DNA from: a virus
Taxonomy: Duplodnaviria > Heunggongvirae > Uroviricota > Caudoviricetes
Length of the DNA: 41,462 nt
Direction: 5' to 3' (one strand)
Virus record (IMG/VR): IMGVR_UViG_2778261298_000002
Span: 1-41,462 of that record
Below the pieces are notes generated by a model. That model ran no database searches, had not been told where the DNA came from, and was given only the letters and a program-made list of their open reading frames with translations. Made by a program: the position numbers and the translations under genes. Each line of letters begins with the position of its first letter. The first letter of the stretch is position 1. Positions 561 through 36,048 of the stretch are shown here, piece after piece.

Positions 561-583
561 AATCCCGCTATACGGGCTTTTTT
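561..583 (+). terminator. Weak rho-independent terminator-like hairpin
   Basis: Short stem cccg/cggg followed by TTTTTT, about 250 nt after the dinI-like stop. Confidence 0.3.
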
Positions 584-658
584 GTATCTGCACACGATTG
601 ATTATTAGGTCCGTATAGCTAATAGTGGTATTAACCTACATATAGAATCAGAGACTTT

Positions 659-1354
659 ATGAAAAAGGAAATACTCAAGGCTCTTTGCCCTACATGCGGT
701 GGGTTACGTAACTGCACTGTGCATGGGAAGCTAACCACTAGCTGGGAGGATTCCCAATATCCAGTTTATGGGTACCATTACCATCACCTACTCCAATGCA
801 ATGGCTGTGATACTGTCTTCTATCACCACAACGAACACTTCAGTGAGCATACTACCCACGAATATCGTGATGGTGAATTTGTAGAAACGCCTATAGATAT
901 GATCACTACCTATCCTGCCGCTGAAACATTTCAAGCTCCGATATGGTTATCCAAGCTTGAATCAGTTGATCGTCAGCTCTTTCAAATATTTAATGAAATG
1001 TATTCTTCATATACTTCTGACCATTTCATTCTTTCGTCCATCGGTTTACGGACGATTTTTGATCGAACTGCTGAACTGTTACAAATTCACCCCGGTTTGC
1101 CGCTTGGTGAAAAAGTTGAAAAATTAAAACAAGATGGAGTCATAGGCGACACTGAGGCATGCGTTATATCTTCAGTAATTGATGCAGGAAACGCCGCCGC
1201 ACATCGCAGTTGGAGCCCGAATAAAAGTGAGTTCGAACAAATGCTAGAAGCTATAGAAAGTTTTGTCCAAAGAACTATCTTGGGCAAAAAATCACTTGAA
1301 CATATAACCAAACAACTCCCACCTCGGGTTACAAGACCTAAAAATAGTGCATAA
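659..1354 (+). CDS. Hypothetical protein, N-terminal CxxC...CxxC zinc ribbon plus C-terminal helical domain (possibly DUF4145-like)
   Basis: 231-aa ORF; N-terminus has CPTCGG...CNGCDTVFYHH; C-terminus has GNAAAH motif; own sigma70-like promoter (TTGATT-16-TAATAG at 598-625); occupies the slot where e14 carries mcrA, next to the invertase. Confidence 0.6.
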   Translation: MKKEILKALCPTCGGLRNCTVHGKLTTSWEDSQYPVYGYHYHHLLQCNGCDTVFYHHNEHFSEHTTHEYRDGEFVETPIDMITTYPAAETFQAPIWLSKLESVDRQLFQIFNEMYSSYTSDHFILSSIGLRTIFDRTAELLQIHPGLPLGEKVEKLKQDGVIGDTEACVISSVIDAGNAAAHRSWSPNKSEFEQMLEAIESFVQRTILGKKSLEHITKQLPPRVTRPKNSA

Positions 1355-1380
1355 TCCGCGATCATCAATGTGGCGTAAGG

Positions 1381-1937
1381 CTATGGTTTACTTGCTACAG
1401 GGAATTTTTTATACACCGTTGAAATACCCAGATCATAAATCAGTGCGACTTGCTGCTGATATATTCCCGATTCAATCAACCTGCCAGCCTGCCCCCATTG
1501 TTCTACTGTCAGCTTTGGCTTTCGCCCACCGTTCCTCCCTTCTTGTCGTGCTGCGGCAAAGCCGCCCTAGTACGTTCGACAATAAACTCTCGCTCCATTT
1601 CAGCCAGGGCACCCATCACATGAAAGAAAAAGCGCCCCATTGGTGTGCTGGTATCAATAGCATCCGTCAGGCTGCGAAAATTAACGCCACGTTCGCGCAA
1701 CTCTTCCACCAGCACGACAAGATGCCGCATACTGCGCCCCAGTCGGTCCAGTTTCCAGACCACCAGCGTGTCACCTGCCGATAATGTCCTGAGCAGCTTT
1801 TTCAGTCCTGGTCTGTCGGACTTTGTACCGCTTATCTTGTCTTCAAAAATCAGCTCACATCCTGCACAGTTCAACGCATTACGTTGTAGATCGGTGTTCT
1901 GGTCATTTGTTGATACGCGAACATAGCCAATAAGCAT
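1381..1937 (-). pseudogene. pin: Serine-recombinase DNA invertase (Pin/Gin/Hin family), frameshifted
   Basis: N-terminal 140 aa MLIGYVRVSTNDQNTDLQRNAL...GRFFFHVMGALAEMEREFIVERT is a resolvase catalytic domain; the C-terminal HTH (..EQWGQAGRLIESGI.QQQVALIYDLGISTVYKKFP) is in a different frame downstream of the stop at 1509; span is 557 nt, not a multiple of 3. Confidence 0.75.
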
Positions 1938-1991
1938 GATTGCTCCTCCTGACAAAAACAGGAACGATGCCATTTGCGCGCTATTTCTGCA

Positions 1992-2017
1992 TTTTCATAA
2001 ACGTTGGTTTGGGAGAA
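1992..2017. other. Invertase crossover site (gix/hix/pix-like), left
   Basis: 26-bp ttttcataaacgttggtttgggagaa; its reverse complement TTCTCCCAAACCAACGTTTATGAAAA matches the site at 3899-3924 and the hix/gix consensus (TTCT..AAACC.A.GGTTT..GA.AA). Confidence 0.75.
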
Positions 2018-2377
2018 GCGGCAAAACGGGATGTGGGGACAGGGGAAAATCAGATACCGGACATGGCCTCTTTTGCCAGTGGTGATGGATGGATGAAATT
2101 ACCCAACGGGAAAATCCTGCAATATGGTCGTGGTGCGGTTACGCCGACATTATCGACGCAAACAATGAGAATTACATTCAGCATCCCTTTCCCCAAAAAA
2201 GCGGACTGCGCCATGCTTACTCATTCTGGTGATGGCGGTGCGCCTTTAGGCGCTGGGCGAGGGTTCGTGATGACTGCAGAAGGCCCAACGTTAACCGGCT
2301 TTAATTCTGCTTACAGAACGTCATCAACCAGCGACACGGTATCGATGAATTACAGTTGGTGGGCTGTTGGTGAGTAA
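2018..2377 (+). other. Silent alternative tail-fibre C-terminal cassette (expressed only after inversion)
   Basis: Open frame continuing from the crossover site (..AAKRDVGTGENQIPDMASFASGDGWMKLPNGKILQYG..) with no independent start; followed directly by a tfa-like gene. Confidence 0.6.
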
Positions 2378-2388
2378 TTTTATTCAGG

Positions 2389-2841
2389 GTGATTTATATG
2401 AACGAATATGTTTATAGCGCAAGGCATAATGCTTTTTTCCCTGTGGATATGATTGATAAATATAAATCAGAGGGATGGGATTTATCAGACGCTAAGGAAG
2501 TAAATCAAAATATTATCAGTGAGTTTATGGCTGAACCGCCACAAGGAAAAATCCGTATTGCCGGAGATGATGGGCTGCCTGCGTGGGCAGATATTCCTCC
2601 ACCCACGCATGAAGAGCTTATTGAAATTACTGAATCAGAAAGACAGCTACTAATTAACCAGGCCAACGAATACATGAACAGTAAGCAATGGCCCGGTAAA
2701 GCCGCTATTGGTCGTCTGAAAGGTGAGGAACTGGCGCAATATAATTTGTGGCTGGATTATCTGGATGCACTGGAGCTGGTTGATACCTCCAGTGCGCCAG
2801 ATATTGAATGGCCTACGCCTCCGGCAGTTCAGGCCAGATGA
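2389..2841 (+). CDS. Tail fibre assembly protein (Tfa), alternative-orientation copy
   Basis: 150 aa; C-terminal motif ..LWLDYLDALELVDTSSAPDIEWPTPP typical of Tfa chaperones. Confidence 0.75.
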   Translation: MIYMNEYVYSARHNAFFPVDMIDKYKSEGWDLSDAKEVNQNIISEFMAEPPQGKIRIAGDDGLPAWADIPPPTHEELIEITESERQLLINQANEYMNSKQWPGKAAIGRLKGEELAQYNLWLDYLDALELVDTSSAPDIEWPTPPAVQAR

Positions 2842-3415
2842 CATCCGGCGCGGTGCTGGTATCTGTTGCCGTCACCGCGTCAATGTAATCCAGCACAGCG
2901 TTAAGTCTGGTTGTTTCTGCCTGCGTCAGTTTACGTCCGGCCTGCAATTTCAGTTGAATCAGACTAATGGAAGCCATTGCAGCATCAATCAGTGACTGGC
3001 GCTGTGCTTCTGCCGCGTCTACTGCGGCGCTATGCTGTGCCTCAGTATCGGTCACCCATTTCTCACCATCCCATTTATCGTATGGCGTTAATGGGGCGAT
3101 AGTGGTTGTATTTTCAGGGTAATCACCCGGAGCGGTGATTTCTTTTGATTCTCCTGTTTTGGTGCTATAGACCGTTTCACCGCGATGGTCTGGCACATAT
3201 TCCCATGAATTTAAATCTACAGAGCGACAGATTGCATAACCAGCTTTATGTGTACCTGGTGCATCCAGACAGGAACATGCCGGGATACCGACTCCGACAG
3301 CGAGATATTCAGTTGATGTAGAAATATATTCCCGCGTTTCGCCATCATAGTTATGTACGATGATTTCCCCATCATTTAAAGCGTAACCGTCTTTTCCCAA
3401 AATAGCCTGTTCCAT
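2813..3415 (-). CDS. Tail fibre assembly protein (Tfa), currently expressed orientation
   Basis: 200 aa; C-terminus ..LNAVLDYIDAVTATDTSTAPDVIWPELP; immediately downstream of the fibre gene. Confidence 0.75.
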   Translation of the reverse strand: MEQAILGKDGYALNDGEIIVHNYDGETREYISTSTEYLAVGVGIPACSCLDAPGTHKAGYAICRSVDLNSWEYVPDHRGETVYSTKTGESKEITAPGDYPENTTTIAPLTPYDKWDGEKWVTDTEAQHSAAVDAAEAQRQSLIDAAMASISLIQLKLQAGRKLTQAETTRLNAVLDYIDAVTATDTSTAPDVIWPELPEA

Positions 3416-4201
3416 TTATGCAGCCCTCACAATGTAGTTAAATGCAATGTTTCGCGGGCTACCATCACCGGCACCGGAACTAACATGATTGGTTCTCTCC
3501 ATTCTTTTACTATCATTTGTTGTTCCCTGCCCATCCTTCCACGAATGCAATAACCCACCGTCGCCAACGCTCAACTGTACGGAAAACACGGATGCAGGAT
3601 TCGGCCCAACATCACTAGCCCAAAGGTTGTCGCCGGTCCAACCAGACATTTCATGGTTATGTTCAAGGATAGATGCTGCCTGACTTGAAAGCAGCAGTCT
3701 CGCGGAATCAACACCTCGCCCATCATCCCACCCGCGAATAAACTCACCGCGCAAATCCGGTAATTTTAACTTTGGGTAAGCCTTTGCCAGTTTTGGGTAC
3801 TCTTCGGCAGAAAAAGGTGCACCGTTGCATTTCAGCCAGCCTGTTGGTGGTGTGGCTGAAGGCCACGGAACAGGCACACCAACGGGTAACGCTGAGCCTT
3901 CTCCCAAATCAAGGTTTTTGAGAGCCGTTGGTACCGTGCCGTCCGATTTGATATCACCAAACGGATTATTGCGGCTTAACAGCAGTGCGCGAAGTGCGGT
4001 AAGCAACTGGTCATACCGCCCCTTCTCCAGGCTGGCACCGGATGCCTCCACAACGCTGCAAAGCTCCTCCTGCAACATGTCAAAGTAGTCATCATCCAGA
4101 TCGGTGGCAGGCGTACCAGTCTGGGGATTACCACGGGTAAAACCGTTCTTACCCGCGCCGAACTTATCCTTCTGCGCGGTTTTCGTGTCTATACGATGCA
4201 T
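3416..4201 (-). CDS. Tail fibre protein (constant N-terminus plus invertible C-terminal receptor-binding part)
   Basis: 261 aa; conserved fibre motifs [10 protein letters not shown]...YPKLAKAYP...[11 protein letters not shown] and C-terminal [11 protein letters not shown]; crossover site lies inside the gene at about codon 93. Confidence 0.8.
3899..3924. other. Invertase crossover site (gix/hix/pix-like), right, inside the tail-fibre gene
   Basis: ttctcccaaatcaaggtttttgagag; inverted repeat of 1992-2017. Confidence 0.75.
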
Positions 4202-4204
4202 GGA

Positions 4205-4789
4205 TTACTCCGGATATTTAAAAATTACGTAGGTATGCGACGGGCAGAGTTTGTTAAGCACACACTCGACAACGGTGTCGCCCCAGATACGCAGTGCGGA
4301 ATCACAGGGATCGCCACATGTCATCCAGGTGGTGTTGGTGGCGGCTGGCATGTTGACCTGCCAGTAATACCGCCATTCCGGCGCATTCACCGCGTCAGTA
4401 CAGGCCGATGAGCAGGTGAACGTGCTTTTATCGTATCGCGTGATAGTGGCGTCTGGTCTGCCCAGGGCAGCAAGCTGTGCAAGATAAAAATCCTCATTGA
4501 TGCCGCCCGCCAGATTAACCTTCGCATCCAGCCGTTGCTGACGCTGGCGAAGGGTCTGTGTCCCTGCGGGAATACATTCATCCGGCAGACCGCACAGACG
4601 CTCCCAGCGGTTTATCAGTTCAGTGGTGGTGCGCGGATCCAGCTCCCGCATCAGGGCATCCGCACGCTGATGAACGCGGGTTAATGACGGTGCCGCACCG
4701 GCAATCGCCGGATCGCTGACTGACCACGCCGGACCGGGCGGCAACAGTGCCGACAACAGACGGATATAATCATCGTTTGTCACGTCCAT
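4205..4789 (-). CDS. Putative tail/baseplate protein (YmfQ / Mu gp48-like)
   Basis: 194 aa, placed between baseplate J and the tail fibre as in e14 and Mu-like tails. Confidence 0.6.
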
Positions 4790-5838
4790 GAAATCGTCCC
4801 CAGAACCGCCAGCTCATTTTTTGCAATGGAGATATTGTCCGCCGGGGCAAGCAACTGATGGCTGTATTCCCCGTTCGCACCGGAAATCGCTTCACTGATA
4901 CGTGACACCTTCAGTTCTCCCTGCGGATAACCATCACGCAGCAGGAACGAACGCAACTCGGCGGTGATGGCAGCCCGTATTTCCGGTGTGTCCGGCGTCA
5001 CGCGGATATGAAAATCCACTTTATGCGCCACCGGCCTGAATACATACAAATCAGAGCCTGCCACCGGGGCCAGTGGCTCGATATGTTGTCTTGCCGCCGT
5101 TTCCGTTGACTCTTCCGGAATGGGATTAATCAGGTCACTGCTGGCAATCATCACACCGACAGACCCCGTTCCCATCCAGTGTCGGTATGTCCATGCGCGG
5201 GTAATGCCGGGCACTTCTTTAGCCCAGACGACATAGTCCCCGTCAGCCCCGCCCTGAGGCGTCCAGTAATACCGCTCAATGACGCGGGCGCGCCACGTTT
5301 CCAGCTCTTCAGTATCAAATCCACCTGTCAGGGTATCTGCCTCGCCGGAAGACGGCAGACCATTCACCGGCGTGACCAGGATTAATGCCGTACCGTCGTC
5401 AGCGTTACCGACCGCGCCTGCACTTGAGCAGGCGATCGGCACGCGCAGGACACCACCGGAGCTGATTGCATCGTCAGTTGTCGTGTACTGCACCAGGTCA
5501 TCGCGCTGAATAACACTCCCGGCAGTCACCTTCAGGCCATCGCTGACACCTTCCCAGCGCATATACCCGCTGGCAACCGTGGCTCCCTTGCGCGGACACC
5601 GTTTCATCTCAGCATGTCGCGCCAGCCAGGACTCATCGCACAGGTCAGGCAGCATATTCATTGCCAGATAATCGATGTAACCGTAGACCGTATGCAGCGC
5701 CGCCGCATACACCTTTGCCCGCACGTCTTCATCCATGCGCCGGAGCGTGTCGCTGACGTCCAGCCTGGCGAATAAATCGTTACGGAGCATACTGATATTT
5801 TCTGCCAGCGTCGGGCGCTGAAATTCACTGTCCGCCAT
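4780..5838 (-). CDS. Baseplate J-like protein (Mu gp47-like)
   Basis: 352 aa; position and size in the Mu-type baseplate cluster. Confidence 0.7.
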
Positions 5839-6253
5839 GCGTTATCGCACTCCACAGATCATCAAAAGAAATCATTACCGGTCCATCACGACGCCAGAGG
5901 GTGATACTGTTACCCAGCTCATTAATCCCGGTGCGGCGGATATCCAGATCAATACGGGACACCACGCCGTCATCAGTCATCCATTGCAGGCATTCGCGGA
6001 TATATCCCCTTACCGTCTGCACCAGCTGATTGGTCAGTTTGCTGCGCTGAAGCAGCCACAGTCGGGAGCCGTAACGGTCATTCTGTACCGCAGGCCAGGT
6101 ATCCCCCCACCATCCCATCGGGACGTCGGCATTGTCATCAGGCTCCGCCCGCCGCCAGGTGAACAGGGAAATCACCACGGCGCGGGTCAGCGGATCCAGC
6201 GGTGCGCTGGCGCAGGTGCGTTTACCGTTCACCGTCAGCCACAGTTCCATCAT
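5825..6253 (-). CDS. Baseplate protein (Mu gp46 / GPW-like)
   Basis: 142 aa; synteny between gpV-like and gpJ-like genes. Confidence 0.6.
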   Translation of the reverse strand: MMELWLTVNGKRTCASAPLDPLTRAVVISLFTWRRAEPDDNADVPMGWWGDTWPAVQNDRYGSRLWLLQRSKLTNQLVQTVRGYIRECLQWMTDDGVVSRIDLDIRRTGINELGNSITLWRRDGPVMISFDDLWSAITHGGQ

Positions 6254-6798
6254 GCCTCCATCGCTTTATCAGGTTTGTCGGTGTTACTGCCCTGACCGTT
6301 CTCTCTGTGACGATGCCCGTTATAGGCAAGCCGCATCGCTGACATGGTGGTGCCGCCGGAGTCGCACAGGTCTTTCACCTGTCCGGTCACTTCAAGGTCC
6401 ATTTCAAAACGTGCTCTGGGAGCATTGCGAAACGTGATCGTTTTACCTGCACCGTCCACCACGATCCCCTTCCGGGTCAGCGTCACGGACTGCCCCTGAT
6501 CGTCATAGACAGCCACCTCACCCGTCTGCAGCCCTTTCAGGCGGTAGCGCCGGTCCGACACCGTAACAACCACCGCATGAGAACGGTCGCCATCCGGAAA
6601 CAACACCACCGCTTCCGCACCGCTGTTTGCCCTTGCGGTAAAACCGTAGGGTTCAAGATGTTCAACCCCGGCTTTGGGTTCACCGGCAATCAGGGACACA
6701 TCCACGGTCTGACATTTCGTGGCGGCACTGATGCTTTTCACCACGGCCCGCCCAATCAGGCCGAGGAGTTGTCGCTGCATGGCTTCAATCGCCCTCAT
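6250..6798 (-). CDS. Baseplate assembly protein V / spike (Mu gp45-like)
   Basis: 182 aa; synteny in the baseplate cluster. Confidence 0.6.
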   Translation of the reverse strand: MRAIEAMQRQLLGLIGRAVVKSISAATKCQTVDVSLIAGEPKAGVEHLEPYGFTARANSGAEAVVLFPDGDRSHAVVVTVSDRRYRLKGLQTGEVAVYDDQGQSVTLTRKGIVVDGAGKTITFRNAPRARFEMDLEVTGQVKDLCDSGGTTMSAMRLAYNGHRHRENGQGSNTDKPDKAMEA

Positions 6799-7877
6799 CA
6801 GAACGGGTCCTCCTGTACTCTGGCTTTTTTCTTTTTCCGCGCGCCGGGGGCTTCGGGTTCAGGCAGATAAGCATCAGGTGGGCCGACACGGATTTCCGTC
6901 AGGGTGCCGTTCTGGTCCTGAGTAAACGTGACTTCCGAAACAAGCAGTTCGGTATTGTCGAAACCACAGACCGGATCGAAGACAATCACCCGCTGGTTGG
7001 GCTGCCACAGCGTACCGTTACCCTGTCGCCAGCCCTGCACCACATAAGTGGTTTCATCCGTCCGCGCCGCCCGTTGTCGGGCTTCAAAGTCAGCACGCGC
7101 AATACAGCCTGCCCCCGTGGCCTGCCCTGTCTGCCTGATATACATCGGACGGTAACGGGCAATAAATGCGTCCTCTGTGCGGGCCCGCAGCGCAGTTGTG
7201 GTGGCCTCACCGAAATCATCGTCGTTTCCGGCACGCTGCCCCGCCACCTGGTAAACAGAAAACCGCTCCCGGATACTCTTCTCCGTATCGCAGGAAAGGA
7301 TGTTTTCCCCAAGTACCAGCGCGGTATGTGCCCGCGTTGAGCCAATACCGCCAATCACCAGCCTGCCGTGCGGGTCGTCGTAAGCCAGTGCCTGCTGCTG
7401 ACCGAGTATTTTGTTGATTACCTCAATCACCGTTTCACCGTGATCAGGCTGGACATCAGGAATAACACCCGACGGCGCACCGCTGTTCACCACCTCAATG
7501 CCGAAAGGCGCAGCAAGCGCCTGCGCAATCTGTACCAGCGATCGTCCGTTAAACTGTGTCGGTTCGGCTGCACAGTCAATCAGGTCAGCGGTCAGACTGC
7601 GTCCGGCAATACCGGTGCTGACCGAACGGGCATCGTAACGAACGGGCGTCGCCTCCACCCAGCCGGTGATCACCAGCTCATCACCAATCAGCACCTCCAC
7701 TTTTGAACCGTTTTTAATGCGCGGCTGAAGCGTGGTAATCCCCTCATCTCCCGGCCACTGGCGGGTGATCTCCACACTGAAATCCCGCGCCAGCCGTTCA
7801 ATACCGGCACCGATGCGCACCGATGTCCAGCCATTCCACTCCCGGCCATTTACCCGTAGCGTGACATTGTCGTTCAT
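6798..7877 (-). CDS. Baseplate hub / tail protein (Mu gp44-like)
   Basis: 359 aa; between the DNA-circularisation protein and gpV-like gene. Confidence 0.6.
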   Translation of the reverse strand: MNDNVTLRVNGREWNGWTSVRIGAGIERLARDFSVEITRQWPGDEGITTLQPRIKNGSKVEVLIGDELVITGWVEATPVRYDARSVSTGIAGRSLTADLIDCAAEPTQFNGRSLVQIAQALAAPFGIEVVNSGAPSGVIPDVQPDHGETVIEVINKILGQQQALAYDDPHGRLVIGGIGSTRAHTALVLGENILSCDTEKSIRERFSVYQVAGQRAGNDDDFGEATTTALRARTEDAFIARYRPMYIRQTGQATGAGCIARADFEARQRAARTDETTYVVQGWRQGNGTLWQPNQRVIVFDPVCGFDNTELLVSEVTFTQDQNGTLTEIRVGPPDAYLPEPEAPGARKKKKARVQEDPF

Positions 7878-9250
7878 TGCACTGGCACCTTCAGAGGGAT
7901 CACCGGCACAAAGCCGGGATGCGTAATGGCATTACGCCGGATAATGTCCGCGTCACGCGCCGCGTTATCAAACCAGGTCGCCGCCAGCACCAGCGCGGGT
8001 AAAACCTCATCCGGTGTGCGCTGAATGATCCGTGCAGACTGTTCAAGGCGCGTGTTGATATCCGCATTCAGATCTGCTTTCACCCGGCGCAGCGCCAGAA
8101 ACAGCGCATCACTGGTTGTACGGGACAACTCCTTATCAATTGCCGTATTCAGTGTGTCGCGAATGTCGGTCAGTTCTTCCCACGTTGGCAGGTCAACCGT
8201 GTTTTTCACCGCCGGTGCATTGTTCAGTGCCGGATGCGTGACAGAAGGCCAGCCGGTGCTCTGCGCGGGTGTTGTTGACTGCCCCACTGTGGCATTCTGC
8301 ATCACCGCGGAAGTTGTGGGCGCAGGCAATCGTGTGACGGCATACGCCGCTTCGCTGATTGCGGTCGTACGAAGGGTGCTGGCAACCACGTTACGCTGCT
8401 GCGTCGCCGTGGCGGTGGTTTTACTGTCCGTTTTCCAGATGCCGCGCGGTTGCAGATCGCTGCCAAGGCTGACACCGGAAAGCGTTTTGATCATGGTGAC
8501 CAGGTCGCTGGCGTTACCATAAAGGCGTTTCCCGGTACGCCACATTTTCTGCACCTGCTCAACGAAATTTTTGCCTGACGATGGCGGCGGCAGAAGTACC
8601 GAGATATCCCCCTGCAACAGCCTGGCGGCATCCGATACGGCAGAATCCACCACTTTCATCGCATCAGAAACATACCCAAGCATTGTGCTGGCATTACCGA
8701 CGACATCGTTCTGCACAAAATCTGCCACGCCATCGATACTGAAACCACTGAAGCTGTCACTGATGCAGTCATCCAGTGCAGAACAGGATGACATCAGCGT
8801 CTGCGCCGTCGCCGCACCTGAAGTGGGGTAAGAGAGTTCTCCCGCTTCGACAAACTTCAGGTCAAAGCGGACAATACGCCCTTCACTCTTCGATGTGCTG
8901 ACCCGAACTTCCCCGTCAACACAGACTTTCAGCTCACCGTAAGTCGGATGGACAAGCGTGCCGGGACCGGGTTTATTCAGCGCTTCAATCAGGCGATCGC
9001 GCTGGTCAAAGCAGTCATCTCCCACCACATAAGCTGTGATGGACGGGCGGAAAGTGATTTTCCCCAGGTCTTCGGTATAGGGTTTGTCGCGGTTCGGGTA
9101 TTCGTGTGTTTCCACACGGCGACCGGTTCCCGCACTTTCTTCTTCAACCTTAAACGATACGCCGCGAAATGACGCGTCCTGAAGTCTGTCACGCCAGCCT
9201 GAAGACGACGAAAGTAATGAAGGTCGGGTGGGAAATGAGGATAAATCCAT
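7874..9250 (-). CDS. DNA circularisation protein-like tail protein (Mu gp43-like)
   Basis: 458 aa; immediately downstream of the tape measure gene as in Mu-like tails. Confidence 0.6.
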   Translation of the reverse strand: MDLSSFPTRPSLLSSSSGWRDRLQDASFRGVSFKVEEESAGTGRRVETHEYPNRDKPYTEDLGKITFRPSITAYVVGDDCFDQRDRLIEALNKPGPGTLVHPTYGELKVCVDGEVRVSTSKSEGRIVRFDLKFVEAGELSYPTSGAATAQTLMSSCSALDDCISDSFSGFSIDGVADFVQNDVVGNASTMLGYVSDAMKVVDSAVSDAARLLQGDISVLLPPPSSGKNFVEQVQKMWRTGKRLYGNASDLVTMIKTLSGVSLGSDLQPRGIWKTDSKTTATATQQRNVVASTLRTTAISEAAYAVTRLPAPTTSAVMQNATVGQSTTPAQSTGWPSVTHPALNNAPAVKNTVDLPTWEELTDIRDTLNTAIDKELSRTTSDALFLALRRVKADLNADINTRLEQSARIIQRTPDEVLPALVLAATWFDNAARDADIIRRNAITHPGFVPVIPLKVPVQ

Positions 9251-9274
9251 AGACTGACCTCAAAAAGGACTGCG

Positions 9275-11182
9275 TTATCGTGGAAAACGAAAAGGGGAAT
9301 ACCCCACATCGTGCGTGATTTTCATCAGGGGATCGGCTTTGTCCGGTACATCAATTATCTTCATACCTGGCGGAGCATTCTCGAACGTGACTTTCAGCTC
9401 GCTGTGCTGTGTCATGGAAGAAGATGGATTCAACAGCGGAACATTGGGTTTGTACTGACTCAGGCTGGCCTGATATTGCTCGTACTCTTTACGATCAAAA
9501 AAAGGCGTCCAGTCTGAAGCCAGAAACAGCCCTTTATTATCCAGCCAGTTAACCGTATCTTCAGGAACAACACTTTCCAGAGTATCTTTAACCGGCTCAT
9601 ACATCAGGGTTCCCAGAAAACCATATACCCCGGCCTTCCCGATAAAGCCGCGGCCTTTCCCCATCAATCCCGTTTCTGCCGATACCTTCCCCAGCGTACG
9701 CATCTCTCTGGTCACTGCGGTAATGGATTTGGTAACGTCAGCAACCCATTTGGTTGCCATAAACAGGGCAATCGCTTTCAGAACAGTTTCCCATCCCCCC
9801 ATCGCCTGCGCCGTTTCATCCATCACGTGCCAGACTTTTTTTATGACAGGACCTACGGTTTCCCAGTTATCAATAATGAGGTAAGCGCCACCAACCAGAA
9901 GAGCAATCAGCCCCTTAGCAGGCGTCATATTCATCACACCGCCGAGAACTTTCATAATTCTGGACAAAGAGCCTGCAGCGGCTCCCACCGTCAGTAAGGC
10001 CAGACCGATTTTAGCAATGGTCTTAACGAGCTCCGGGTTTTCACGGACAAACGTTCTCACTTCCTCAAGGAGCGGTTTTACCGCTTCAAGACCATCATTA
10101 ACCTCAGGAAGAAACGTTTCCCCCAGCGTGGAAGAAATGGCATCAAGTTGATTTTGCAGAAGTAAAAGCTGGTTTTCCGTCGTCGCTGCCCTCGAAGCAT
10201 ATTCCTTCTGCATCGAACTGCCATACTGCTGGGAATCCGCAACCCGCCTGAAGTTGGTACGCAACAAATCAAGGTTAGTCAGCAGAGGTGCTATCGCGCC
10301 CAGAGACTCTTTCCCGAACAGGGCATTCAGCACAGCTGCCTGTTTTTCTTTAGGCACTTTAGCCATCGCATCCAGTACAGATAGCATGGTGCCCCGGGCA
10401 TCTTTCTGCATATCAGCAGCTAATTTCTTCGGATTGATCCGCAGAAAACGCAATGCCTGTTTCTGCGATTTTGTCGCAGAATTTCCCGCGGTCAGGGAAA
10501 GCATGAAGTTCTTGATCCCTGTGGCGGCAATTTCTGACTCCACGCCCATCCCGGCAATGGTTGCCCCCATTGCCGCGATTTCGCCGGAAGCCACACCTGC
10601 AACACCACCTAAAGGACCAATACGCGTAACAATATCGGAGATTTTCTTCGCGTTCGCCGGGCCGGTATTACCAAGGTAGTTGATTTTGTCAGCCAGCCCG
10701 GCCACTTCATCCTGCGTCATATTAAACGCAGTACGCCACTGGGCCATCATCTGCCCGGACTCTTCAGCCGTGGTATCAAAGGCCACGCCCATCTTCACCG
10801 CATCAGTGGCAAACTGCATCAGTTCATCACGTGCAATCCCGGCCTGACCACCCGCCGCCACGATTTCAGCGATACCTTCCGCCGACATAGGCAGTTCGGT
10901 TGACAGGTCACGCACCTGCTCCGTCATGGCCTTAAACGCATCCGGCGTATCCAGACCGTCCACCACTTTGCGGACATCAGCCATCTTCGATTCAAGGGTG
11001 ATGGCTGATTTTACAGGGAGTACCAGTGCCCCCATTATTGCAGTACCCGCCCCGGCAGCGCCCAGAGCAAGGCTGGAGACTTCTTTCTGAAATCCCTTAA
11101 GCTGACGCTGCATACCTTTAAGCGGGCCGGATAGCCTGTCAACGGCGGTGATGATGGCTTTCAGCTGAAAATTATCAGCCAT
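9275..11182 (-). CDS. Tail tape measure protein
   Basis: 635 aa, Ala/Gly-rich with helical repeats and hydrophobic segments; downstream of the tube and chaperone genes. Confidence 0.8.
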   Translation of the reverse strand: MADNFQLKAIITAVDRLSGPLKGMQRQLKGFQKEVSSLALGAAGAGTAIMGALVLPVKSAITLESKMADVRKVVDGLDTPDAFKAMTEQVRDLSTELPMSAEGIAEIVAAGGQAGIARDELMQFATDAVKMGVAFDTTAEESGQMMAQWRTAFNMTQDEVAGLADKINYLGNTGPANAKKISDIVTRIGPLGGVAGVASGEIAAMGATIAGMGVESEIAATGIKNFMLSLTAGNSATKSQKQALRFLRINPKKLAADMQKDARGTMLSVLDAMAKVPKEKQAAVLNALFGKESLGAIAPLLTNLDLLRTNFRRVADSQQYGSSMQKEYASRAATTENQLLLLQNQLDAISSTLGETFLPEVNDGLEAVKPLLEEVRTFVRENPELVKTIAKIGLALLTVGAAAGSLSRIMKVLGGVMNMTPAKGLIALLVGGAYLIIDNWETVGPVIKKVWHVMDETAQAMGGWETVLKAIALFMATKWVADVTKSITAVTREMRTLGKVSAETGLMGKGRGFIGKAGVYGFLGTLMYEPVKDTLESVVPEDTVNWLDNKGLFLASDWTPFFDRKEYEQYQASLSQYKPNVPLLNPSSSMTQHSELKVTFENAPPGMKIIDVPDKADPLMKITHDVGYSPFRFPR

Positions 11183-30438: not shown

Positions 30439-31019
30439 GCGTTAGTTTCTCCACAGTCACGACACGCCACGGCGCCCGGAGCTGCACACTCGCGGGCGTC
30501 ATTACTTTCTGAAATGCAAAAGATTTTGTAGACCAGTGCTGCATGCTCCTGCAGCTTCGAAATTGAGAGATACAGCTCGTCGTTAATTGCTGTCTTCTCA
30601 TGCGGTTCCACCACACCGTCTTCGATTGCCGAACGAATCTGTCTGGAATAACTGCCAATCTGTTCAATGACTTCCAGCAGGCGCTTGTTAATATCGGCGT
30701 TGTCCACATCCTCGACGTCAGGAAGAGACACAAAGACGCCATTTGCAGACTGCGCCACAGCGTCAGCAATGAAGTGAGTTCCACCAGCACGTTGCAAAAC
30801 CATTGCCCATCCCAGCGGGAAAATCTGATCGCCATCGGCACGAAGGCGGTTAAATAATGCGTTCTCTGTTACATCCAGCCAGTCAGCAGCTTCAGCGTAA
30901 CCACCCGGCAACGCCGCGATAGTTTTTCTGACAGCTTTCACGTACCACTCAGGCTGTTTTTCTACTTTCCAGTGATGCTTACCCACGGCTATCTCCTTAA
31001 AACTGTGGTTACTTTCCAT
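30435..31019 (-). CDS. Early regulatory protein (YdaT/CII-like, uncertain)
   Basis: 194 aa directly downstream of the cro-like gene. Confidence 0.4.
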
Positions 31020-31257
31020 CTGATAAGTCTTTAATCTTTTGAAAAATATCTGGACGTAATTTTTCTTTTGATACGCCAGTGGTCATTTCAATAAATATCG
31101 AGAGTTTTGCAGGGGGACGCTTTTCTCTGTTCAACCAGTTCCAGACATGTTGTTGCTTTACTAAACGACCACTGCTGGCTGTGAGCTTCCGAGCCAATTC
31201 TGATTGACCACCAGCCAGAGCGATTGCCTCTGATAAGGCTAATTGCTCAGGTGTCAT
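31009..31257 (-). CDS. Cro-like HTH regulator (YdaS-like)
   Basis: 82 aa; HTH (SQSELARKLTASSGRLVKQQHVWNWL); divergent from the CI-like repressor. Confidence 0.65.
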   Translation of the reverse strand: MTPEQLALSEAIALAGGQSELARKLTASSGRLVKQQHVWNWLNREKRPPAKLSIFIEMTTGVSKEKLRPDIFQKIKDLSDGK

Positions 31258-31394
31258 AGCTTTCTCCTATCTGTAAGTAGTAAAGTTGTTGATAACTTCG
31301 ATTATACAACTACAACAACTTTCATCACAACTTTTAGATGTTGGAAAGCTAAAACATAAAGTTGTAACCTCAATAAAAACGAGGGGGATATGTT
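31258..31394. promoter_or_regulatory. Immunity operator/promoter region (OR-like) between cro-like and cI-like genes
   Basis: Repeated half-sites AAGTTGT/ACAACTT; minus-strand promoter TTGTGA-18-TATAAT (rc of 31325-31330 and 31301-31306) toward cro; plus-strand TTGATA at 31289-31294. Confidence 0.6.
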
Positions 31395-32081
31395 GTGAAA
31401 ACATTGGCAGAAAGACTAAAAAGCGAAAGAGAAAAAGCAGGAATGAGTCAGGCGCAACTAGCTGAAAAAATTGGGCTTTCACAACAATCCGTAGCGAAAA
31501 TCGAGAATGGAGAAACTCAACAGCCTCGGAAAATTAAAGAGATTGCTAAAGTGTTAGGGGTTTCTCAAAAGTGGTTGCAATTGGGCATTGAGGATAACGC
31601 GTCTTTCCCAGACCTTGTTGTAAAGGAGGCTGAAAGTACAGCATTAGATCCTGACATTTTTGCAAACATTCCAGTCCTAGATGTCGAGTTATCAGCGGGT
31701 AATGGATGTTTGGCTGAAATAGTTGAATCAACTGTAGACTGGTTCCCGCTAAGAAGGATTGATTTAAGAAAAGCTGGTGTATGTGTCTCCAATGCAAAGA
31801 TCGTAAAAATTTGGGGCAATAGTTTACTACCTGTACTTAACAATGGAGATTTTGTTGCTGTTGATGTTTCCCAAACGGTTCCTATTCGTGATGGGGATCT
31901 TTATGCCATACGTGATGGCGTATTACTTAGAGTTAAAATATTGATCAATTTACCTGACGGTGGTCTGATTCTAAGAAGTTTCAATAAAGATGAGTATCCA
32001 GATGAAATACTCACCTTCGAAGATAGGCGTTCAAGAATTCACGTTATAGGTAGAGTATTCTGGTCATCGCGCACTTGGTAA
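31395..32081 (+). CDS. CI-like repressor (HTH XRE domain plus S24 LexA-like peptidase domain), GTG start
   Basis: 228 aa; N-terminal HTH (MSQAQLAEKIGLSQQSVAKIENGE); C-terminal S24-like domain. Confidence 0.8.
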   Translation: MKTLAERLKSEREKAGMSQAQLAEKIGLSQQSVAKIENGETQQPRKIKEIAKVLGVSQKWLQLGIEDNASFPDLVVKEAESTALDPDIFANIPVLDVELSAGNGCLAEIVESTVDWFPLRRIDLRKAGVCVSNAKIVKIWGNSLLPVLNNGDFVAVDVSQTVPIRDGDLYAIRDGVLLRVKILINLPDGGLILRSFNKDEYPDEILTFEDRRSRIHVIGRVFWSSRTW

Positions 32082-32267
32082 TGCATCAAAAAACCTTCCT
32101 TCAGAAATTTAGTTACCATTATTACCCGCCTTTTCAATCTTCCTCCCGTGATTTGAGAGTTTCCAATCACGGAAGGAAAGTGTCCCTTGTGTAATTAAAA
32201 GCGCATCGTCCATACAACCTCCTTTTTTGATAACCCTTGCCCTCATTTCACATCCGTCAAAACCACA

Positions 32268-32320
32268 TAAAGTTGTTGACAACAACCAAAACAACAACTA
32301 GATTACAACTTAAAGATGTT
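32268..32320. promoter_or_regulatory. Second operator/promoter cluster (OL/PL-like) driving the early-left operon
   Basis: aaagttgttgacaacaaccaaaacaacaactagattacaacttaaagatgttg repeats the OR half-sites; plus-strand TTGACA (32276-32281)-17 bp-TAGATT (32299-32304). Confidence 0.55.
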
Positions 32321-32396
32321 GCAGTAACGAACAGGCAGGACGCCCACGAAGTAGCCGCCGGTGGCGTATGAATGACCGGATGATTCGTTAAATACT

Positions 32397-32618
32397 ATGT
32401 GTAAGAGAGCGCAAATGAACCGTTATTTCACATGCTCGTTTTGTGGCGCAAACGAGCTGCAGGCAAAAAAAATCATCGCCAAAGGCGGAAAAGATGAAGT
32501 TGCTATCTGCTCTGAGTGCGTAGTCTTGTGTGTCGGGGCATTAATCAATATCAGCACAACTATTCAGTTCACACCAAATGAGAATGCGCCTTTAGATGCG
32601 CGGAAATCTGGAGGTTAA
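32397..32618 (+). CDS. Small protein with ClpX-type C4 zinc finger (ClpX N-domain mimic)
   Basis: 73 aa; YFTCSFCGANELQAKKIIAKGGKDEVAICSECVVLC parallels ClpX [33 protein letters not shown]. Confidence 0.65.
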   Translation: MCKRAQMNRYFTCSFCGANELQAKKIIAKGGKDEVAICSECVVLCVGALINISTTIQFTPNENAPLDARKSGG

Positions 32619-32668
32619 AGAACAAAATGAAAGTCCAGATTTTAAACAATAACTGTGAAGTCGTTTGG
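32606..32668. repeat. 63-bp direct repeat, copy 1 (RBS plus first 14 codons MKVQILNN...; truncated ORF here)
   Basis: Near-identical to 33234-33296; here the ORF stops after 15 codons (MKVQILNNNCEVVWA*). Confidence 0.8.
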
Positions 32669-32677
32669 GCGTAAAAC

Positions 32678-32884
32678 ATGACCGCGCGTAGACCAAGGGA
32701 GGAAAAAGTGGGAATAGTTAGAAATCAAGCAGATATATTGAAAATCAGCTCTGAATTGCTTGGAGTTTTGAAAAGTGAGCTCACCGCACATGGCATCGAG
32801 CCCACTGACGAAAATTTAAGTTGGGTTTTGTCGATTATTCAACAATCACTCAAGCCCAGCCTCAGCAAACTTTTTATCGAGTAG
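32678..32884 (+). CDS. Hypothetical small protein (68 aa; alternative GTG start at 32708)
   Basis: ORF with RBS GGGAGG before the GTG; 3' end overlaps the convergent minus-strand ORF. Confidence 0.4.
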   Translation: MTARRPREEKVGIVRNQADILKISSELLGVLKSELTAHGIEPTDENLSWVLSIIQQSLKPSLSKLFIE

Positions 32885-33037
32885 TGCTTCGAACTTATCG
32901 TAAAGCTTGCTTATGTCGTCTATCGGGTTTTCTGACGTACTGTAATTTTTATCTGATGTCATGGCAGCAGTCTGATATGCAGTGTGAGTCTTAACAGATA
33001 GTTGGAATAAATAAAGAATTTTTTCTTCTTTGGTCAT
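32846..33037 (-). CDS. Hypothetical small protein (63 aa from the ATG with a good RBS)
   Basis: MTKEEKILYLFQLSVKTH...; RBS aggaaa; 91-bp repeat lies about 35 bp upstream. Confidence 0.45.
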   Translation of the reverse strand: MTKEEKILYLFQLSVKTHTAYQTAAMTSDKNYSTSENPIDDISKLYDKFEALLDKKFAEAGLE

Positions 33038-33071
33038 AACTATTTCCTTCTTGGCTATATGAAAACACCAA

Positions 33072-33162
33072 GATACCACCGAGCCTGAAGTGGTGAAAAG
33101 ACAGGCACATAACAGCTAAGTATTTTCAACCAGAGAGAATCCTTAGCGTTGTGGTGAATGCG
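33072..33162. repeat. 91-bp direct repeat, copy 1 (upstream of minus-strand small gene)
   Basis: gataccaccgagcctgaagtggtgaaaagacaggcacataacagctaagtattttcaaccagagagaatccttagcgttgtggtgaatgcg; identical copy at 33727-33817. Confidence 0.85.
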
Positions 33163-33233
33163 CAGGCTGATGCGCGAAAGACATTGCAGCTATTGCGGAA
33201 AAGAGCTGTTCGGCGGGGCCATTAAACGCCCGT

Positions 33234-33296
33234 ATCTGGAGGTTAAAGAACAAAATGAAAGTCCAGATTTTAAACAATAGTGGTGAAGTCGTTTGG
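33234..33296. repeat. 63-bp direct repeat, copy 2 (start of the full-length MKVQILNN ORF)
   Basis: Matches 32606-32668. Confidence 0.8.
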
Positions 33297-33530
33297 TCAT
33301 ACGACATAGCCGCTCCTGTAGATCAGAGCGGCGATAGCTGGACCAATGGGAAACATCAGATTATGGCTGGAGTTGTGTTCTCTTTACGCCGTGCTTTGGA
33401 ACAGGCTGAAGTATTTCCATCAGACCCTGAATGGAAATGGCCTTTTTCTATTTGTCCAAATTCGGAGAGCACATTTCAGAAAATTGGTCAGAAAGTCGCA
33501 CTCGAAGAGCATCAGCCAACTGTTTCCTGA
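33255..33530 (+). CDS. Hypothetical small protein (91 aa)
   Basis: MKVQILNNSGEVVWSYDIAAPV...; RBS GGAGG; 3' end overlaps the convergent ORF. Confidence 0.5.
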   Translation: MKVQILNNSGEVVWSYDIAAPVDQSGDSWTNGKHQIMAGVVFSLRRALEQAEVFPSDPEWKWPFSICPNSESTFQKIGQKVALEEHQPTVS

Positions 33531-33693
33531 TTTTTTCAGGTAACTCGTCGGCATCGCAGAAACAACAACGCTCGATCATGTTGAAAGCCGATTCGTAGAA
33601 CTGTTTCTGCTGAGTGTCGCTGAGACAGGAAAAGAGCGACGTTACGATGATTTTATTAATTGCATTATCAAGTTCTTTTTCATCAAAAGTCAT
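33448..33693 (-). CDS. Hypothetical small protein (81 aa, Cys-containing)
   Basis: MTFDEKELDNAINKII...ERCCFCDADELPEK...; RBS aaggaaaa; 91-bp repeat about 34 bp upstream. Confidence 0.5.
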   Translation of the reverse strand: MTFDEKELDNAINKIIVTSLFSCLSDTQQKQFYESAFNMIERCCFCDADELPEKIRKQLADALRVRLSDQFSEMCSPNLDK

Positions 33694-33726
33694 TTGATTT
33701 TCCTTTTATGTATACGGGCTTAAAAG

Positions 33727-33817
33727 GATACCACCGAGCCTGAAGTGGTGAAAAGACAGGCACATAACAGCTAAGTATTTTCAACCAGAGAGAATCCTTA
33801 GCGTTGTGGTGAATGCG
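33727..33817. repeat. 91-bp direct repeat, copy 2
   Basis: Identical to 33072-33162. Confidence 0.85.
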
Positions 33818-33947
33818 GCTCAGCGCACGCGGGTTAAGGTTGAGGCTGACAGTCGACCTTCTGTGGATACCCACCCGCCTGGTGTGCAACCTTCGCCAGG
33901 CACCGGGAGGCACCCGGCACCACAACTTTATGCTGTGTGTAGTCCTC

Positions 33948-33993
33948 GCGGTACCAGTTTGTACACTTGCTTCCGGCTGGTACCGCTCTTTTT
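33948..33993 (+). terminator. Terminator-like hairpin (10-bp stem gcggtaccag/ctggtaccgc plus T-run) in a GC-rich structured leader
   Basis: Perfect 10-bp inverted repeat with a 19-nt loop, followed by tcttttt. Confidence 0.4.
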
Positions 33994-34130
33994 ACAAAAC
34001 AGAGAAGAGCATCACCGGACGACGGGCTCATAACCCAATCCATCCGGGCGGCTGCCACCGCAGGTGTTCTTCTCTGTTTTGTGGAGAAACCAACCGACCT
34101 TGCAGGGTCGATATGATGAGGAGCAGCAAA

Positions 34131-34493
34131 ATGGCTAGCGAACGCAGTACTGATGTGCAGGCATTTATCGGGGAGCTGGACGGCGGCGTATTTGAAACCA
34201 AAATCGGCGCTGTTCTCAGTGAAGTCGCTTCCGGTGTGATGAACACGAAAACCAAAGGTAAGGTCTCGCTCAACCTGGAAATCGAACCATTTGATGAGAA
34301 CCGTGTGAAAATCAAACACAAACTCTCATATGTTCGCCCGACTAACCGCGGGAAAATTTCCGAAGAAGACACCACCGAAACGCCGATGTATGTCAATCGC
34401 GGTGGTCGCCTGACTATTCTGCAGGAAGACCAGGGACAATTACTGACTCTTGCCGGTGAACCTGACGGAAAACTCCGCGCAGCAGGTCGTTAA
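34131..34493 (+). CDS. Hypothetical protein, YfdP-like (120 aa)
   Basis: Start taken at MASERS with RBS GAGGAG; size and order recall the CPS-53 yfdP-yfdT block; the track's longer ORF from 33813 is rejected. Confidence 0.5.
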   Translation: MASERSTDVQAFIGELDGGVFETKIGAVLSEVASGVMNTKTKGKVSLNLEIEPFDENRVKIKHKLSYVRPTNRGKISEEDTTETPMYVNRGGRLTILQEDQGQLLTLAGEPDGKLRAAGR

Positions 34494-34558
34494 TATCGTT
34501 CGTAATAAACTGATTATTTATCTCATCACTGAATATCTTTATATAGTGAGGACTTATT

Positions 34559-35383
34559 ATGTCTCAGAACTTAGACGCAACCGCAATTAATCAAATCCAT
34601 GCCCTTATTTCTGCTCAGGGTGTTAATGAAATTATCAGTAAGATTGGTGCCGATGCTGTGGCATTGCCTGAGAATTTCCGCATTCATGATCTGGAAAAAT
34701 TTAATTTAAATCGCTTCCGTTTCCGTGGTGCGCTTTCCACTGCCAGTATCGATGACTTTACCCGTTATTCTAAAGATCTTGCAGATGAAGGCACCCGCTG
34801 CTTTATCGATGCCGATAATATGCGTGCCGTCAGTGTGCTTAACCTGGGTACTATTGATGAACCAGGTCACGCAGATAACACCGCCACTCTCAAACTGAAA
34901 AAGACAGCACCGTTCTCTGCCCTGTTGTCTGTTAACGGCGAGCGTAACTCCCAGAAATCACTGGCAGAATGGATTGAAGACTGGGCCGACTACCTTGTGG
35001 GCTTTGATGCTAATGGTGACGCCATTCAGGCAACAAAAGCGGCGGCGGCAATCCGTAAAATCACGATTGAAGCAAACCAGACCGCTGATTTTGAAGATAA
35101 TGACTTCAGCGGCAAACGCTCCCTGATGGAATCTGTCGAAGCGAAGACCAAAGACATTATGCCAGTGGCATTTGAATTTAAATGCGTTCCATTTGAAGGC
35201 CTGAAAGAACGTCCGTTTAAATTACGACTCAGCATTATCACTGGCGATCGTCCTGTACTGGTTCTGCGCATTATTCAGCTGGAAGCGGTGCAGGAAGAAA
35301 TGGCTAACGAATTTCGTGATCTGCTTGTTGAGAAATTCAAAGACAGCAAAGTAGAAACCTTTATTGGTACTTTCACCGCCTGA
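34559..35383 (+). CDS. DUF2303-like protein (YfdQ-like, 274 aa)
   Basis: Size and synteny; RBS GTGAGGA upstream. Confidence 0.5.
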
Positions 35384-35511
35384 TTTCATTACTGCAAATG
35401 CCCCTGCGGGGGCATTTATGGAAACGTAATTAACTCAATAATCACCGGATGGTGAGGGCTTCCTTTTACCAGAATTCAGTGCGGTGCAGCGCAAATAACG
35501 TGGAGAACAAA

Positions 35512-36048
35512 ATGTCATTTATTAAAACTTTTTCTGGGAAGCATTTTTATTATGACAGGATAAATAAAGACGACATCGTTATTAACGATATCGCGGTTTC
35601 CCTTTCAAATATCTGTCGCTTTGCAGGACATCTTTCACACTTCTACAGCGTCGCCCAACATGCGGTTCTTTGCAGCCAACTGGTACCGCAGGAATTTGCT
35701 TTTGAAGCGTTAATGCATGATGCAACAGAAGCATATTGCCAGGACATCCCCGCACCACTGAAACGCCTTCTTCCTGACTATAAACGGATGGAAGAAAAAA
35801 TAGACGCCGTAATCCGTGAGAAATACGGGTTACCTCCTGTTATGAGCACGCCAGTGAAATATGCCGATCTCATTATGCTGGCAACCGAACGCCGCGATCT
35901 CGGGCTTGATGATGGCTCTTTCTGGCCTGTACTGGAAGGTATCCCGGCGACAGAGATGTTCAAAGTTATTCCACTGTCACCAGGCCATGCCTACGGGATG
36001 TTTATGGAACGTTTTAACGAGTTATCGGAGTTACGCAAATGCGCATGA
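35512..36048 (+). CDS. HD-domain phosphohydrolase (YfdR-like 5'-deoxynucleotidase)
   Basis: 178 aa from MSFIKTF; H..H and HD motifs (GHLSHFYSVAQHAV...LMHDATEAY). Confidence 0.65.
   Translation: MSFIKTFSGKHFYYDRINKDDIVINDIAVSLSNICRFAGHLSHFYSVAQHAVLCSQLVPQEFAFEALMHDATEAYCQDIPAPLKRLLPDYKRMEEKIDAVIREKYGLPPVMSTPVKYADLIMLATERRDLGLDDGSFWPVLEGIPATEMFKVIPLSPGHAYGMFMERFNELSELRKCA

Follow-up and report, generated by a model that had tools for sequence, protein, structure and literature searches.

Two unrelated convergent gene pairs between repeated borders in a variable slot of an SfV/SfII/e14-type prophage

Lambdoid phages carry moron slots, in which variable genes with small products of unknown function lie between the conserved flanks of collinear phages and are exchanged at short conserved borders; a moron is defined by its own promoter and terminator, and lambda bor, transcribed against the late operon, is an example (PMC3594210). 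The Escherichia coli K-12 prophage e14 carries the genes ymfJ, ymfI, and ymfH. ymfJ is derepressed late in SOS alongside ymfM and intE, and YmfJ protein has been detected (PMC11002266). The ymfI-ymfJ pair is listed from K-12 RNA-seq as a convergent excludon with overlapping transcription (PMC12288877). The STnc100/PasD prophage small RNAs (sRNAs; Rfam RF02076) are multicopy and have promoters of their own (PMC10794520; bioRxiv 10.64898/2026.05.13.724894). Genes near the immunity region that could act in the lysogen include lambda rexAB, P22 sieB, and BstA-type loci. Here, we analyze two head-to-tail units of small genes at positions 32397 to 33817 of the IMG/VR virus record IMGVR_UViG_2778261298_000002. 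This stretch of 41,462 nt (the window) is an SfV/SfII/e14-type lambdoid E. coli prophage.

A repeat search and the open reading frames (ORFs) bore out the layout described in a sequence-only reading of the window: 63-bp and 91-bp repeats, two head-to-tail modules, and in each module one gene on the plus strand converging on one on the minus strand, their 3′ ends overlapping. The pairs are p68 and m63 (cassette A; overlap of 39 nt) and p91 and m81 (cassette B; overlap of 83 nt). The longer repeat, J2 (family D1, 91 nt), is 100% identical between two copies spaced 655 nt apart. The other (family D2, 80 nt; 32606-32685 and 33234-33313) is 89% identical at a spacing of 628 nt, and its 63-nt core, J1, has 3 mismatches (95% identity). 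All remaining repeat families in 31000-35500 are imperfect and at most 23 nt long; D1 and D2 are thus far beyond chance. The frame starting with MKVQILNN runs for 91 codons in copy 2 and in copy 1 meets a stop after 15 codons, as the sequence-only reading had it; the 91-bp repeat, described there as about 35 bp upstream of the minus-strand genes, begins upstream of their ATGs at a distance of 34 nt in copy 1 and 33 nt in copy 2.

The two modules had also been called paralogous. This did not hold for their genes, as neither p68 and p91 nor m63 and m81 gave a BLASTP match at an E value of ≤10; only the borders repeat. The repeats are the borders common to two unrelated two-gene accessory cassettes. 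An assembly artifact in which a repeat was collapsed or expanded, a possibility raised in the sequence-only reading, has nothing in its favor except that exact repeats exist, and we put its probability at practically nil. The arrangement recurs in 10 records of 9 complete genomes from unrelated sources and in two immunity backgrounds, and the same tandem block (32326-34090) is present at ∼99% identity in independent complete genomes (CX04/05/07/15/21, 730V1, 873.10, and G5).

To place the cassettes among their relatives, we surveyed 29 loci having both the conserved leader that precedes the first unit and the left part of J2. These loci hold 13 different slot contents between flanks that are 87 to 100% conserved, with a minus-strand gene abutting J2 in most. 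Content varies among collinear relatives between conserved flanks, as it does in moron slots, and the exchange of cassettes between conserved borders that had been suggested from sequence is supported by this survey of related loci. Convergent overlapping pairs between the borders are exchangeable accessory cassettes, of which relatives normally carry one. Cassette A occurs alone in SfII, 90-9281, and EC17CM13 (99.4 to 99.8%) and behind a ClpX-type zinc-finger (ZF) gene in SM107 and Z1323PEC0011, the latter having the same immunity region as the window. Cassette B occurs alone in SfV, C4, and L115. The slot of ST361 holds a different 68-aa gene and an ECs1072-family gene, and that of e14 holds ymfJ (plus strand) and ymfI (minus strand), which also converge and overlap. 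In e14, the leader is ∼87% and the J2-STnc100 block 91 to 92% identical to those of the window, and ymfJ is likewise under CI-like control; unlike the window, e14 has one cassette, with genes lacking similarity to p68, p91, m63, and m81. Across further genera and phage backbones, p68 and m63 are kept paired at the same slot in Klebsiella and Atlantibacter, and p91 and m81 in a Rac-like Salmonella prophage and in locus L143, in each case with the leader and the J2 hairpin.

Of 5,426 complete E. coli genomes, ∼3,000 have matches to parts of the region used as query (32100-34150), and 470 match a probe that covers the 3′ end of the ZF gene plus its junction with cassette A (32480-32780). Cassette A is present in 63 of these genomes and the tandem form in 9. 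The tandem block is combined with either of two different immunity regions, and homology sets in precisely at the leader (position 32326).

Each half of the tandem arrangement is 99 to 100% identical to a free-standing single-cassette relative. In the window, collinearity with Z1323PEC0011 extends to 33162, and that with 720R4 begins at 33143. In 720R4, a truncated RNA module comes immediately behind the phage's own pL, and J1 and cassette B come next; starting at this pL, 720R4 is 98.7% identical to the window over 33143-36000 and 99.8% over 33143-34200. Because collinearity with the two relatives overlaps there, the crossover interval is the ∼20 nt at 33143-33162 (..GTTGTGGTGAATGCG), a stretch common to the 5′ ends of the J2/STnc100 block and of the other RNA module. 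A phage with the ZF gene and cassette A (e.g., Z1323PEC0011 or SM107) would have recombined with a 720R4-type phage within this interval. We regard it as likely that the locus is a hypervariable first slot of the pL operon, bounded on the left by the leader and on the right by J2, STnc100, and a terminator, in which two unrelated cassettes were stacked by recombination.

Alternatively, one ancestral module might have been duplicated in tandem in situ, followed by gene replacement in one copy. The identity of the J2 copies over all 91 nt, the 95% identity of J1 over 63 nt, and the similar periods (628 and 655 nt) fit such an origin, but the gene contents of the units are unrelated and each half has its own near-identical relative elsewhere. 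In addition, the module after J2 copy 1 is of the type found in P13-6 and pS51_2, cut at 33233, and not a decayed STnc100, which Rfam does not find there even at E values of ≤10. Because the RNA modules behind the two J2 copies differ in type, in situ duplication is very unlikely. Thus, of the duplication and cassette swapping invoked in the sequence-only reading, the swapping stands, given the 13 contents, while the duplication is not supported, given the single-cassette relatives. An integron-like cassette array was also considered and set aside: the borders are an sRNA gene and a ribosome-binding site with gene start, and the genes annotated near the slot in the relatives that we inspected include no integron integrase, although attC-like sites were not searched.

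The slot is common and hypervariable, and the tandem is its rare form with stacked cassettes, arising through ordinary phage mosaicism; the findings point to no new mechanism or system. The repeat pattern is the footprint of ordinary mosaic recombination at a well-delimited slot at the head of the pL operon in a very common E. coli prophage group. Structured RNA elements, namely a covarying pL leader and STnc100-type modules, serve as the recombination borders; moron borders, in comparison, are gene ends. The slot also differs from lambdoid moron slots in that its unit is usually a convergent, 3′-overlapping gene pair, and it resembles them in that its minus-strand genes are oriented against the host operon. 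The coordinates of all features are collected in Table 1; no tRNA or tmRNA was found in the window.

Table 1. Features at and around the slot (positions in the window; a dot marks a feature without assigned strand)
Feature	Positions	Strand	Basis or remark
CI-type repressor, HTH_3 (helix-turn-helix) and Peptidase_S24	31395-32081	+	Pfam matches; relatives annotate XRE family regulator
pL-like promoter TTGACA-17-TAGATT (32276-32304) overlapping operator-like repeat (32268-32283)	32268-32304	+	Promoter scan
Conserved structured leader of pL transcript	32326-32389	+	Left border of variable slot and of immunity-region swaps
Optional first gene, free-standing ClpX-type C4 ZF protein	32397-32618	+	73 aa; RefSeq start 32415, 67 aa
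J1 copy 1	32606-32668	+	Ends as 15-codon stub ORF, 32627-32674
p68, cassette A plus-strand gene, 68 aa	32678-32884	+	phrog_15476, E = 7e-50
m63, cassette A minus-strand gene, 63 aa, predicted helical hairpin	32846-33037	-	phrog_2605
J2 copy 1, 91 nt	33072-33162	.	Hairpin 1 (33076-33094), hairpin 2 (33112-33153), then GTGGTGAATGCG
3′-truncated structured-RNA module (taken for a ZF remnant in the sequence-only reading), fused to J1 at 33233/33234	33141-33233	+	Sequence identity
J1 copy 2	33234-33296	+	Repeat search
p91, cassette B plus-strand gene, 91 aa	33255-33530	+	phrog_3195, E = 8e-64
m81, cassette B minus-strand gene, 81 aa	33448-33693	-	phrog_3311, E = 1e-55
J2 copy 2, continuous with STnc100 RNA	33727-33817	.	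Repeats, alignment, fold
STnc100-family prophage sRNA (Rfam RF02076)	33773-33995	+	49.1 bits vs gathering score of 47
Second large hairpin before yfdP, 25-nt arms	33994-34082	+	Inverted repeat I1; 84-85% conserved in Atlantibacter
yfdP, first conserved early-left gene past the slot	34131-34493	+	phrog_204; annotated yfdP in relatives

The short stretch between J2 copy 1 and J1 copy 2 had been taken for a degenerate ClpX zinc-finger remnant. Its 40-aa ORF (33158-33280) has no match to PF06689 at E values of ≤10, and its DNA aligns with the ZF gene no better than shuffled sequence does (best local alignment score of 20; shuffles averaged 15.1, with a maximum of 26). Instead, 33141-33233 is a truncated noncoding RNA module that corresponds, at 97 to 98% identity, to the initial 93 nt of a module of ∼140 nt (GTTGTGGTGAATGCG...CACCGGTCACCACAAC). 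The full module is found in E. coli P13-6 between pL and yfdP (locus L138, ∼2505-2645) and in plasmid pS51_2 between tRNA-Thr and tciA (locus L137). It folds into a closing helix with internal hairpins, the same kind of structure as STnc100, with which it shares only the ends of the closing helix and the multihairpin layout. RF02076 matched neither the full-length module in L138 (E ≤ 1) nor the region after J2 copy 1 (33118-33233; E ≤ 10).

J2 is itself composite, its left third being a hairpin that travels with the minus-strand genes and its right two-thirds the 5′ domain of STnc100. The left 34 to 44 nt (hairpin GATACCACCGAGCCTGAWGTGG, then AAAAGACAGG) are conserved ahead of the minus-strand genes in Klebsiella, Atlantibacter, and Salmonella loci that lack the remainder of J2 and STnc100. 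The right part forms the hairpin AAC-A-GCTAAG...CTTAGC-GTT, which has compensatory counterparts in P13-6 and in the P1-like plasmid pS51_2 (AAC-A-GGTAAGGG...CCCTTACC-GTT), and it continues directly into GTGGTGAATGCG, the 5′ strand of the STnc100 closing helix. A further segment of J2, GGCACAUAACAG, pairs beyond the STnc100 core. Together, J2 and STnc100 fold at -105 kcal/mol (z = -3.83), and the 3′ end of STnc100 is an intrinsic terminator hairpin with a T-run (33948-33993).

Whether the 91-nt repeat is chiefly a promoter or operator cassette for the minus-strand genes is a separate question, and we consider this role possible but doubtful. The repeat lies 33 to 34 nt upstream of both minus-strand ATGs, and its left hairpin is retained there across genera in loci without STnc100. 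However, J2 has no sigma-70 consensus on either strand, and its right two-thirds pairs within a plus-strand RNA that is continuous with an sRNA recognized by Rfam. The slot has a single minus-strand promoter-like site, at 33693-33664, and this site is internal to m81, at the 5′ end of its coding sequence; a consensus scan is weak evidence either way.

J1 joins the terminal 13 nt of the ZF gene to a GGAGG and codons 1 to 14 of the p91 frame. In cassette A phages, this frame is cut after codon 14, leaving the stub whose stop lies 3 nt before the ATG of p68. Given this spacing, J1 probably supplies the translation start of p68 through coupling.

The sequence-only reading had placed the modules in the position equivalent to rexAB. 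In lambda, rexAB lies between cI and pL and is cotranscribed with cI; the modules of the window lie downstream of pL, as a pL-like promoter and an operator-like repeat separate them from the end of cI. The pL-like site has 10 of 12 consensus matches and is the best promoter-like site of the region, although as a consensus match it is putative. The 16-nt operator-like repeat (TAAAGTTGTTGAYAAC) also occurs in the pR/pRM region (31281-31296; repeat family D5, and also D3 and I2); a cro-like gene is divergent to cI. Relatives have pL at the same spot, with a TTGAC promoter at the equivalent relative place, and the e14 gene of this slot is derepressed together with ymfM and intE (PMC11002266). Judged from these features, the slot opens the early-left operon and does not occupy the place of rexAB.

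Prophages of E. coli, Klebsiella, Salmonella, and Atlantibacter whose immunity regions are unrelated share the leader that forms the left border at 87 to 97% identity. This leader has three helices, with 92.9% of cells paired and 5 pairs changed on both sides; for example, the stem CCGGU/ACCGG is replaced by CCUGG/CCAGG or by CCCGG/CCGGG. Its covariation score was 0.286, compared with 0.104 in shuffles (none of the 500 reaching it) and ≤0.086 in slid controls. No Rfam family matched the leader (32326-32389). We regard it as a candidate cis-acting leader RNA, perhaps nut-like, in phages in which no N-like gene was noticed.

Upon induction, the pL transcript would read through the leader, the ZF gene, the stub and p68, J2 copy 1, the truncated module, which lacks a terminator, and p91, up to the STnc100 terminator. 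The plus-strand genes would thereby be made on induction, and the minus-strand genes would be expressed in the lysogen while pL is silent and suppressed on induction. By analogy with ymfI-ymfJ, the convergent overlap may give mutual, excludon-like interference. Several points weigh against this overall picture of the slot. Expression of the minus-strand genes in the lysogen is drawn solely from the e14 literature, and neither the consensus scan nor inspection by eye gave a sigma-70 consensus for these genes in or near J2, so that the promoter characteristic of a moron was not found by this means. Promoter consensus matches in the region are not enriched (4 found, compared with 5.4 expected in shuffles). 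The order of events could be the reverse, with the 720R4-type arrangement derived from the tandem, and the 100% identity of the J2 copies could reflect recent duplication or gene conversion.

Codon comparisons indicate that all four cassette genes are real and under purifying selection. Rates of nonsynonymous and synonymous substitution (dN/dS) were 0.108/0.837 for p68 against its Atlantibacter homolog and 0.091/0.427 for m63, for which the other two frames gave ∼1 or more; homologs of m63 at the same slot in Klebsiella and Atlantibacter are 64 to 84% identical. p91, which equals SfV orf33 without the 7-codon extension of the latter, gave 0.253/1.294 against Salmonella and 0.275/1.15 against L143. 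For m81, dN was 0.24 to 0.25 against the Salmonella and L143 homologs, and dS was saturated (2.2 to 2.4). The genuine diverged m81 homologs were found only via DNA alignment of these two loci; P0020 and P0022 were rejected as such homologs, being deletion or truncation derivatives. m81 has the conserved motif DRCC[FY]C. A segment of m81, CCFCDADELPEK, resembles CSFCGANELQAK of the ZF protein (7 of 12 identical; E of ∼0.03 in a tiny database), probably by chance.

The maximum 19-residue Kyte-Doolittle mean of the four proteins is 0.46 to 0.89. By this measure they are soluble and without membrane-peptide character, and we infer that cassette products are small soluble accessory proteins. None is the small hydrophobic membrane toxin of a type I toxin-antitoxin system. 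A type II system is not indicated either, as the genes are convergent and no toxin or antitoxin family of Pfam or NCBIfam was matched. Indeed, the cassette proteins matched no Pfam or NCBIfam family at all, their PHROGs are all of unknown function, and sequence searches of the PDB were empty. AlphaFold2 gave an unusable model of p91 (predicted local distance difference test [pLDDT] score of 44) and a generic two-helix hairpin for m63 (pLDDT of 76) without a Foldseek match in the PDB or BFVD. Against PADLOC-DB 2.0, five window proteins, ECs1072, ymfI, ymfJ, and the 159-aa and 163-aa proteins of other slots had no match at E values of ≤0.01; the sole match at this threshold was mad1 (5.7e-5), to the HTH domain of the 122-aa slot protein of L069. 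The p68 N terminus (ARRPREEK) was considered as an N-like arginine-rich motif and rejected, as it is not kept in the Atlantibacter and Klebsiella homologs.

Could a convergent pair be a functional unit, with the minus-strand gene a lysogen-expressed exclusion or abortive factor or toxin, and the plus-strand gene a pL-induced antidote that also acts through antisense or transcriptional interference? The pairs p68/m63, p91/m81, and ymfJ/ymfI are kept together, with their overlap, across genera and phage backbones; purifying selection acts on all genes; the slot is hypervariable, as in known defense hot spots; ymfI-ymfJ has been scored as an excludon; and some slot alternatives encode a 159- to 164-aa protein with a long hydrophobic stretch. 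Conversely, no defense or toxin family of PADLOC, Pfam, or NCBIfam was matched, the proteins are soluble without membrane-peptide character, and the consensus scan gave no promoter for the minus-strand genes. Some slots (L069 and L135) also have only one ORF of ≥45 aa with an ATG start, yet L135 has in addition a GTG-start homolog of p68. On balance, such a unit seems unlikely. The resemblance to rexAB, sieB, and BstA-type loci is confined to the location near the immunity region, where genes could act in the lysogen, as the window proteins lack sequence or profile similarity to known exclusion or defense proteins.

A broader proposal, that p68/m63, p91/m81, ymfJ/ymfI, and p68b/ECs1072 form an undescribed "guard plus release" class, is rather improbable. 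The minus-strand protein would guard the lysogen through exclusion or abortive infection. At induction of the prophage, this guard would be switched off by the plus-strand protein, as the earliest pL product, jointly with the antisense pL transcript, and the leader and J2/STnc100 would be portable borders by which such pairs pass from one phage backbone to another. The four small conserved genes of the convergent pairs are nonetheless reasonable targets for defense or counterdefense screens. The alternative slot protein of 159 to 164 aa (MTRDD..HYS..LEKMNYTLL), encoded on the minus strand in L049 and L013, has its long hydrophobic stretch by eye and no Pfam or PADLOC match; it could have two membrane helices and be an exclusion-type membrane protein.

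The ZF protein that precedes cassette A matches PF06689 (E = 1.4e-10; 41.3 bits, with a gathering cutoff of 27) and phrog_5259. Its gene is absent in SfV and SfII and present in C4, L115, and SM107. The protein might modulate ClpXP or ClpXP adaptors.

Two terminator-like hairpins in series (33948-33993 and 33994-34082) lie between the slot and yfdP-yfdQ-yfdR. The early-left operon would thus need read-through or antitermination, and no N-like protein was noticed. A put-like antiterminator RNA of the HK022 kind was considered for STnc100 or the leader and rejected, as neither has similarity to the right-hand half (early region) of the HK022 genome and as STnc100 copies also occur elsewhere, e.g., downstream of stx2 in 933W (PMC12370729). 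RefSeq labels the STnc100 region (33813-34130; loci L001, L003, L005, L007, and L010) as protein coding, as ymfH in K-12 and elsewhere as "frameshifted hypothetical protein" pseudogenes; this label is probably a misannotated sRNA gene.

The window copy passes the gathering score of RF02076 and shares with STnc100/PasD sRNAs the 22-nt invariant core CACCGGGAGGCACCCGGCACCA, which we found in at least 120 viral contigs of IMG/VR in ∼40 sequence contexts. A sigma-70-type promoter ends 3 to 10 nt before GTGGTGAAT in 34 of 105 distinct STnc100 contexts. Unlike these, the SfV/e14-group copy lacks such a promoter and is situated behind pL and the cassettes; a further difference is that the module following J2 copy 1 is truncated and not recognized by RF02076. 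Two cores lie exactly 484 nt apart in 4 IMG/VR contigs (L025, L042, L056, and L076), and further contigs have paired cores 267, 275, 922, or 4,027 nt apart, which indicates that tandem stacking of such RNA modules is recurrent. Natural deletion variants indicate that the STnc100 core is dispensable for prophage maintenance: FDAARGOS_1295 (L006, 3439-3500) retains only the first 38 nt of J2, followed by the STnc100 terminator, and EC17CM13 (L009, 3413-3520) has lost the stretch from GTGGTGAAT into yfdR.

In P13-6 (L138, 2150-2500), a 16-bp helix immediately ahead of GTGGTGAAT encloses hairpins with tRNA-like T-arms (GTCCG-TTCGATT-CGGAC); ARAGORN detects no tRNA in this interval. Closing-helix RNA modules form an array between tRNA-Thr and tciA in pS51_2 (L137, 2430-3330), with a partial STnc100 match of 38 bits among them.

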